Assembly (NCBI RefSeq): GCF_003790525.1
Contig: NZ_CP033635.1
DNA length: 64,000 bases
Source of the DNA: Escherichia coli
GTDB taxonomy: Bacteria > Pseudomonadota > Gammaproteobacteria > Enterobacterales > Enterobacteriaceae
Direction: 5' to 3' (one strand)
A program made the translations under genes and the position numbers. Numbering within the stretch: the first letter of the stretch is position 1; the number at the start of each line of letters is the position of its first letter. Shown piece by piece: positions 16,487 to 16,868 of this stretch. Under the pieces are notes generated by a model that saw only the letters and a list, made by a program, of their open reading frames with translations, did no database searches and had not been told where the DNA came from.

Positions 16487-16868
16487 TCAGGACGTCAAAT
16501 AAATAACAACTGTAATTATTCTCTCCAAATTAACAATCTCTGTATACATACTCAGGCGTGTTCACGCATACAACACGCCTTTCTGATATTTAATTGTTTA
16601 CAGAAATATTGCCGAATAAAAATATAAACCATAGTCTTAAAAAATAATAATTCCACTAAAGCTATCCCAGAACAACCAGTACAAATAATAAAAGACATAT
16701 CACAGCAACACTCCACACTGACAGCGCAAAAATAAATGCCGCCTTTGTTATCTTCATATACAAGCAACCTGTCCTGATAATCACCAACTCATGTTTTATT
16801 CTTAACCATTCGTCACAAATACAACAAAAAATAACAGCAGCAGCACCGATATCACAATATAAGATACA

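Follow-up and report, generated by a model that had tools for sequence, protein, structure and literature searches.

A candidate small membrane protein gene at the end of an adhesin cassette in Escherichia coli

A short hydrophobic reading frame lies on the minus strand of a 64,000-nucleotide stretch of Escherichia coli DNA (NCBI RefSeq assembly GCF_003790525.1, contig NZ_CP033635.1), which we refer to as the window. The frame most likely encodes a genuine 31-residue small inner-membrane protein and would form the final cistron of a mobile cassette with four parts. We termed this 31-codon open reading frame (ORF) sORF2, a 25-codon companion ORF sORF1, and the region 3' of the cassette's regulator gene the tail. 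The cassette order is a YadA-like adhesin, the regulator, sORF1 and, last, sORF2. We estimate at about 0.5 the probability that two genuine inner-membrane microproteins, each a single helix, are encoded in the tail and expressed from the regulator transcript. sORF2 is best filed as a candidate small membrane protein, with sORF1 as the better-supported companion. The features of the cassette are listed here (nt, nucleotides).

17386-19002, minus strand: adhesin, the first cassette gene, a 538-residue YadA-like trimeric autotransporter (PF03895, E=1.2e-16; YadA anchor 2lme)
16869-17324, minus strand: regulator, a 151-residue sigma-70 region-4-type helix-turn-helix (HTH) protein (PF08281, E=2.2e-7, 30.9 bits)
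16885-16893, minus strand: Shine-Dalgarno (SD)-like sequence GGCGGGGGA for sORF1, within the regulator gene near its 3' end and 5 nt before the GTG
16802-16879, minus strand: sORF1, 25 codons, GTG start (TTG one codon later), peptide (M)LNNVSYIVISVLLLLFFVVFVTNG
16767-16775, minus strand: weak SD-like sequence AGGACAGGT upstream of sORF2
16662-16757, minus strand: sORF2, ATG at 16757-16755, 31 sense codons, TAG at 16664-16662
16648-16661, no strand assigned: end of the conserved cassette, with two junction types, CYATAGTGRAAT and then divergence; alignments stop at about 16650

Two hydrophobic frames behind the regulator

sORF2 is a complete ORF of no more than 50 codons with canonical start and stop codons. 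Its 31-residue peptide, MKITKAAFIFALSVWSVAVICLLLFVLVVLG, has two lysines, K2 and K5, near the N-terminus, followed by a 26-residue hydrophobic helix that reaches the C-terminus. A first-pass annotation of this DNA had proposed a minus-strand ORF of 31 codons here, and we recovered exactly that frame; the left coordinate it gave, 16664, marks where the stop codon begins. That annotation had also called the frame unannotated. This is so in RefSeq but not in GenBank, where EKJ80020.1 (E. coli AD30) is a 40-residue version, and automatic gene callers have recorded the 31-residue product on more than 200 contigs. A literature search for the peptide sequence returned no paper containing it.

The hydrophobicity of sORF2 exceeds chance and is statistically non-trivial. 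Among 20,000 shuffles of the 219-nt tail that preserved mono- or dinucleotide composition, 0.09-0.2% contained an ATG-initiated ORF that was 31 or more codons long and reached a 19-residue hydropathy of 2.9 or higher (P about 0.001-0.002), and none contained two hydrophobic ORFs of at least 25 codons (0/20000). When the 796 ORFs of 20-80 residues in the six frames of the 64-kb window are ranked by hydrophobicity, sORF2 is second, with a 19-residue hydropathy of 3.01, and sORF1 third, with 2.85. Both measures uphold the resemblance to small membrane proteins that the first-pass annotation had suggested, and sORF2 contains a hydrophobic stretch that is long enough to span a membrane, beyond what composition provides. 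The coding strand of the tail consists of T 41%, G 27%, A 23% and C 9%. At codon position 2, T reaches 61% in sORF2 and 68% in sORF1, each in its own frame, compared with 41% overall.

To score coding potential, 44 long ORFs from the window served as the training set for a 3-periodic Markov model, and 708 spurious small ORFs and real 32-codon segments as references. The score of sORF1 is +0.16 bits/codon, above all 708 spurious small ORFs and at the 35th percentile of real 32-codon segments. sORF2 scores -0.085 bits/codon, which places it in the top 10% of spurious small ORFs and in the bottom 3% of real segments. The regulator, which was compared with neither reference set, scores +0.063 bits/codon. 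For both sORF1 and sORF2, the in-frame score is the best of the three frames.

The start region of sORF1 is embedded in the regulator gene. The two overlap by 11 nt, comprising the last 8 nt of the regulator coding sequence and its TAA stop, and the sORF1 SD has a pairing energy of -8.6 kcal/mol at spacing 5, the strongest among six starts examined. This is the layout of translational coupling, and coupling may be how sORF1 is translated. The start of sORF2 falls 44 nt past the sORF1 stop. The first-pass annotation had missed sORF1, which we rank as a better gene candidate than sORF2 for its strong SD and gene-like coding potential. An origin of the pair by internal duplication was considered and rejected, local alignments between the two being not significant (DNA P 0.07; protein P 0.12 and 0.03).

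From this layout and these statistics, we infer a path of transcription, translation and membrane insertion. The tail, which has no promoter of its own, would be transcribed by read-through from the adhesin/regulator transcript. Ribosomes that end the regulator at its UAA may re-initiate on the overlapping GUG of sORF1, where a strong SD lies 5 nt upstream, and sORF2 would be translated from its own AUG via its weak SD, 44 nt past the sORF1 stop. Following the positive-inside rule, the sORF2 peptide is predicted to insert into the membrane as a single helix, its Lys2 and Lys5 facing the cytoplasm and its C-terminus lying at the periplasmic face. It probably acts as an accessory of the cassette embedded in the membrane and might, for instance, modulate adhesin export or regulator output, a guess made from gene linkage only; a self-standing toxin role is less likely.

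Distribution and conservation of the cassette

The tail is present in 183 of 5426 complete E. coli genomes (about 3%), where it occupies 288-290 places, all chromosomal, with up to 7 per genome. All of these copies are 97-100% identical. The same adhesin-regulator pair always precedes the tail, and the surroundings vary. The cassette is found at prophage ends adjoining a DinI-like gene; in islands adjoining either a lysozyme-inhibitor gene (with a transketolase fragment) or a YaiO glycosyltransferase cluster; and in satellite-like elements that encode an integrase and a RepA-like helicase, some of them with an IS256 insertion sequence (IS) downstream. Judged by these sequence contexts, the cassette is mobile between element types. 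Its carriers include avian-pathogenic and Shiga-toxin-producing strains; O111:H8 7-58 72A, APEC E19035 and APEC IMT5155 all have the cassette. Species-representative genomes gave no match, and IMG/VR contained one copy.

Homology between prophage (DinI-type) and island-type copies stops 12-16 nt 3' of the sORF2 stop, and the mobile unit therefore carries the whole of sORF2. An overlapping 71-residue ORF at 16552-16767 was rejected as a gene candidate: it spans this boundary and is not conserved.

For a comparison of alleles, 38 copies were sampled through the regulator, not through sORF2, from the window, RefSeq, metagenomes, IMG/VR and NCBI assemblies. Of these, 37 have an intact sORF2, the exception being strain SFE8. 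In SFE8 an IS4-like element also lies between the adhesin and the regulator, and the cassette is undergoing degradation there. All observed variants of the sORF2 peptide (A6V, F10L, I20M, V28I and L30M) retain hydrophobic residues. The regulator carries 4 single-nucleotide polymorphisms (SNPs) in 453 nt, and the 44-nt spacer between sORF1 and sORF2 carries one, which abolishes an alternative TTG start. This TTG would give a longer, 41-residue form of sORF2, which we rejected: it has no SD, and the change, T to C at 16787, removes the TTG in 7 of the 38 copies. The sole variant of sORF1 is the in-frame loss of one CTG, and a search with the sORF1 peptide returned a single frameshifted variant and nothing else. 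The first-pass annotation had proposed that loss of the frame in homologous prophages would count against sORF2. The frame is kept in 37/38 copies, but this carries little weight and cannot decide the matter, because at 97-100% identity divergence is too low for selection to be measurable.

The regulator, from its sequence, appears to be an orphan. Its HTH match covers residues 87-130 of 151 and is its sole part resembling anything known; the N-terminal half gives a weak match to phrog_6585 (E=3e-4). No homologue between about 40% and 88% identity was found among 1.84 billion representatives with HMMER or in a word-indexed search, and the matches at 88% identity or above are all short fragments; a full-length relative under about 88% was likewise not found. 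Identical copies of the regulator protein are listed for 5466 indexed blocks. Assignment to the extracytoplasmic function (ECF) sigma factors failed, as region 2 was not matched and the ECF models reached 19-21 bits against cut-offs of 43-220. sORF2 shares the regulator's reading frame, with one TAA stop and 37 open codons between them. Read-through of this stop into sORF2 is considered unlikely: the TAA is kept in all 38 copies and is followed by T, and UAA followed by U is the strongest stop context in E. coli.

A deposited protein of 220 residues, MDC9149451.1 (RefSeq/GenBank, 'sigma factor-like'; GCA_028598215.1, 4001-4663), joins the regulator, sORF1 and sORF2 into one chain. This fusion requires two length changes relative to the window, G5 to G4 at 16886-16890 and T6 to T7 at 16826-16831. 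Compared with the near-identical complete genome of strain 144, GCA_028598215.1 contains 10 homopolymer indels and about 4 substitutions in 8.66 kb. The fused allele occurs at none of the 290 places in the 5426 complete genomes, where the best match is 99.3%. Given the excess of homopolymer indels in the assembly that carries it, and its absence from complete genomes, we rejected a membrane-anchored fused regulator as a sequencing artefact, and MDC9149451.1 therefore gives no support for an ancestral anchored regulator.

Alternative explanations

A number of observations weigh against translation of sORF2. Many of them also favour the explanation that the tail is a T/G-rich 3' untranslated region of the regulator mRNA, in which the hydrophobic frames are by-products of composition. 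A strand rich in T and G favours open hydrophobic frames, and stops interrupt just one of the three minus-strand frames over the length of sORF2. The best anti-SD pairing of sORF2, AGGACAGGU, is weak (-5.0 kcal/mol at spacing 9, with an internal bulge), although no weaker than that of the annotated adhesin gene (-4.1 kcal/mol; the regulator has -6.9). The AGGA reported 8-12 nt upstream in the first-pass annotation actually lies at 16775-16772, 14 nt from the ATG. A crude consensus scan predicted no promoter on the minus strand across 16650-17385. The coding score of sORF2, intermediate between the two reference sets, is lower than that of 97% of real 32-codon segments. Its SNPs in the sampled copies, A6V and V28I, are both non-synonymous with 0 synonymous, and purifying selection on sORF2 is therefore not shown; hydrophobic-to-hydrophobic changes are the outcome that the genetic code leads one to expect for T-centred codons. 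In strain SFE8 the frame tolerates an IS3-family element after codon 3 and diverges from codon 4. A search of 5.8 billion clusters with the sORF2 peptide found only variants at 94% identity or above and no homologue outside the cassette. The tail DNA is absent from phage and plasmid collections, the phage collection being empty by protein search as well, and none of the RefSeq cassette records examined annotates sORF2. Against an untranslated tail stand the shuffles, which yield such an ORF in 0.1-0.2% only and the hydrophobic pair of at least 25 codons each in 0/20000, and the window, in which a single other ORF among 796 is as hydrophobic as sORF2. In addition, sORF1 combines gene-like coding potential with a strong, well-spaced SD, and the cassette boundary lies directly past the sORF2 stop. 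On balance we regard a non-functional sORF2 as unlikely, but a serious alternative.

Two further explanations start from the neighbours and from the peptide itself. An ancestral regulator of about 220 residues might have had a membrane anchor that a stop and/or frameshifts later cut off; both hydrophobic stretches would then be what is left of that decayed anchor, and the mini-ORFs its fossils. The position of sORF2 in the regulator's frame, one TAA away, fits this account, as do the 68 codons past the regulator stop, which are all open (P about 0.005 in shuffles), and the deposited 220-residue fusion. However, the fusion needs both indels (G5 to G4 and T6 to T7) in an assembly rich in homopolymer indels, a second fused database entry has further frameshifts, and none of the 290 complete-genome copies carries the allele. 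No regulator homologue with a C-terminal anchor was found among the 1.84 billion representatives. With the Pfam HTH match extending to residue 130 of the 151, nothing hints at a truncated regulator; a two-helix fusion would place the lysine/arginine-rich linker on the wrong side of the membrane; and the stop itself stands in the strongest E. coli context. We therefore consider a relic quite improbable. Still less likely is a type I toxin, a membrane-depolarising peptide restrained by an antisense RNA that would stabilise the prophage or island. The first-pass annotation had suggested this role, and sORF2 has the appropriate size and shape (under 60 residues, one hydrophobic transmembrane helix), resembling DinQ, Ibs or Zor peptides (DinQ in PMC3567139); moreover the locus sits on mobile elements, and a promoter-like site matching 9/12 lies on the opposite strand at 16753-16781. 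This site is within chance (7 found, 8.0 expected) and directs RNA away from sORF2, and a crude consensus scan found no terminator after it on the plus strand before 17434. The convergent antisense small RNA (sRNA) that such a toxin calls for was found neither in Rfam, where no relevant antitoxin family matched at E<=10, nor in a promoter-plus-terminator scan, which stayed at chance level. Searches of sORF1 and sORF2 against Pfam, NCBIfam, PHROG and PADLOC gave no family match, to toxins or otherwise, a spurious Doppel match (E=0.016) aside; sORF2 matches none of Hok/Gef, Ldr, TisB, Ibs, ShoB, DinQ, Zor or Fst. The 361-nt tail folds no better than its shuffles (z=-0.86), sORF2 has no promoter or structured leader of its own, and its place as the final cistron after a regulator differs from the layout of known type I loci. 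With these tests negative, the defining parts of a type I toxin-antitoxin system are not found, apart from peptide size and hydrophobicity.

If the two frames are translated, as we favour, they would add two lineage-specific microproteins, missed by standard annotation, to a mobile virulence-type cassette, and sORF1 and sORF2 would become candidates for a role as accessories to adhesin display or regulation. A more ambitious proposal, which we hold to be doubtful, is that the regulator, sORF1 and sORF2 form an undescribed three-part module. Here the regulator would be co-translated stoichiometrically with two E. coli-specific microproteins that couple membrane status, such as adhesin export load, to regulator activity, and the pair would be a new microprotein family travelling with adhesin cassettes between prophages and chromosomal islands. 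If the frames are not translated, sORF2 is an unremarkable side effect of T-richness in a 3' region. The deposited 220-residue 'regulator' MDC9149451.1 is an artefact of homopolymer errors, and the interpretation as a toxin-antitoxin system should not be carried forward.

Genomic setting and comparison with known systems

The cassette in the window lies at the attR-side end of a lambdoid prophage, a conclusion drawn from the order of the genes that run from the tail fibres to the integrase. The flanking features are as follows.

16238-16486, plus strand: DinI-family gene (PF06183, E=2.3e-19)
19402-25626, minus strand: tail fibre genes J, stf and tfa

Past the tail fibre genes come terminase, endolysin, repressor and finally, at the far end, the integrase (59497-60810). 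The attR-side moron setting, the AT-rich stretch (33-41% G+C across 16500-16950) and the placement between the DinI-like gene (16238-16486, plus strand) and the regulator (16869-17324, minus strand) are all as the first-pass annotation had described them. On the host side are genes that we take, from their translations and with no tool naming them, to be aspS (13235-15007), yecD (15302-15883) and then a truncated yecE. The yecE frame (15880-16000) ceases to match after about 36 codons, where the prophage starts, which fits an insertion of the prophage into yecE. Outside the conserved cassette, at 16554-16580, a perfect inverted repeat of 9 bp (AGGCGTGTT N9 AACACGCCT) precedes a T-rich run on the plus strand and probably serves as terminator for the DinI-like gene. 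The adhesin gene contains a tandem repeat at 17808-18364 on the minus strand (5.6 copies of 99 nt, or 33 residues, at 98% identity); between strains the adhesin varies from about 346 to 581 residues, and its gene is at times a pseudogene or interrupted by an IS. Elsewhere in the window, a strongly hydrophobic 32-residue small ORF (57980-58078, plus strand) lies just 5' of the gene at 58087-58716 in the prophage early region, and a 52-residue one (6717-6875, plus strand), antisense within a long host ORF, is probably spurious.

The regulator and sORF1 recall an ECF sigma/anti-sigma pair, in that the gene for a sigma-region-4-type protein overlaps a downstream ORF whose peptide would span the membrane once. 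The regulator, however, is without region 2 and falls far under every ECF cut-off, and in sORF1 and sORF2 the helix is preceded by 4-5 residues, with no domain match and hence no anti-sigma domain. Type I toxins include Hok/Gef, Ldr, Ibs, TisB and ZorO. Such toxins, of which DinQ is an example (PMC3567139), are like sORF2 in size, in having a hydrophobic single helix and in their occurrence on horizontally acquired DNA, whereas the antisense sRNA signature, own promoter, structured leader and family match that distinguish them were not found for sORF2.

An accessory gene linked to a trimeric autotransporter gene has a precedent in SadB of Salmonella, an inner-membrane lipoprotein that is the helper of a trimeric autotransporter (PMC3953254). 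The likeness is that of an inner-membrane-associated accessory, which for sORF2 is a prediction. SadB is a much larger, trimeric lipoprotein, whereas sORF2 has no lipobox (A-V-I-C is off consensus) and no similarity to SadB. A neighbour survey of annotated genes concluded that few trimeric autotransporter accessory proteins are left to find (bioRxiv 10.64898/2026.01.22.700529). Because it was restricted to annotated genes, this survey could not have seen genes of the size of sORF1 and sORF2.

Small membrane subunits encoded in operons include KdpF (29 residues), CydX (37 residues) and AcrZ (49 residues). Like these, sORF2 is a small hydrophobic cistron that would be co-transcribed with larger partners and would likely be their accessory. 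The partners of KdpF, CydX and AcrZ are inner-membrane complexes, whereas sORF2 would have as partners an adhesin of the outer membrane and a DNA-binding protein that is soluble, and there is no shared sequence. The single-helix small membrane proteins of E. coli, such as the 27-residue YohP (PMC7549839; review PMC12648545), have no sequence similarity to sORF2, and their genes are stand-alone, stress-induced members of the core genome with demonstrated translation, whereas sORF2 is the candidate tail cistron of a mobile cassette in about 3% of genomes. With proteins of the YohP type, sORF2 nevertheless shares a length under 50 residues, approximately one transmembrane helix, a short charged N-terminus, the absence of any other domain, and the fact of having been overlooked by standard annotation.
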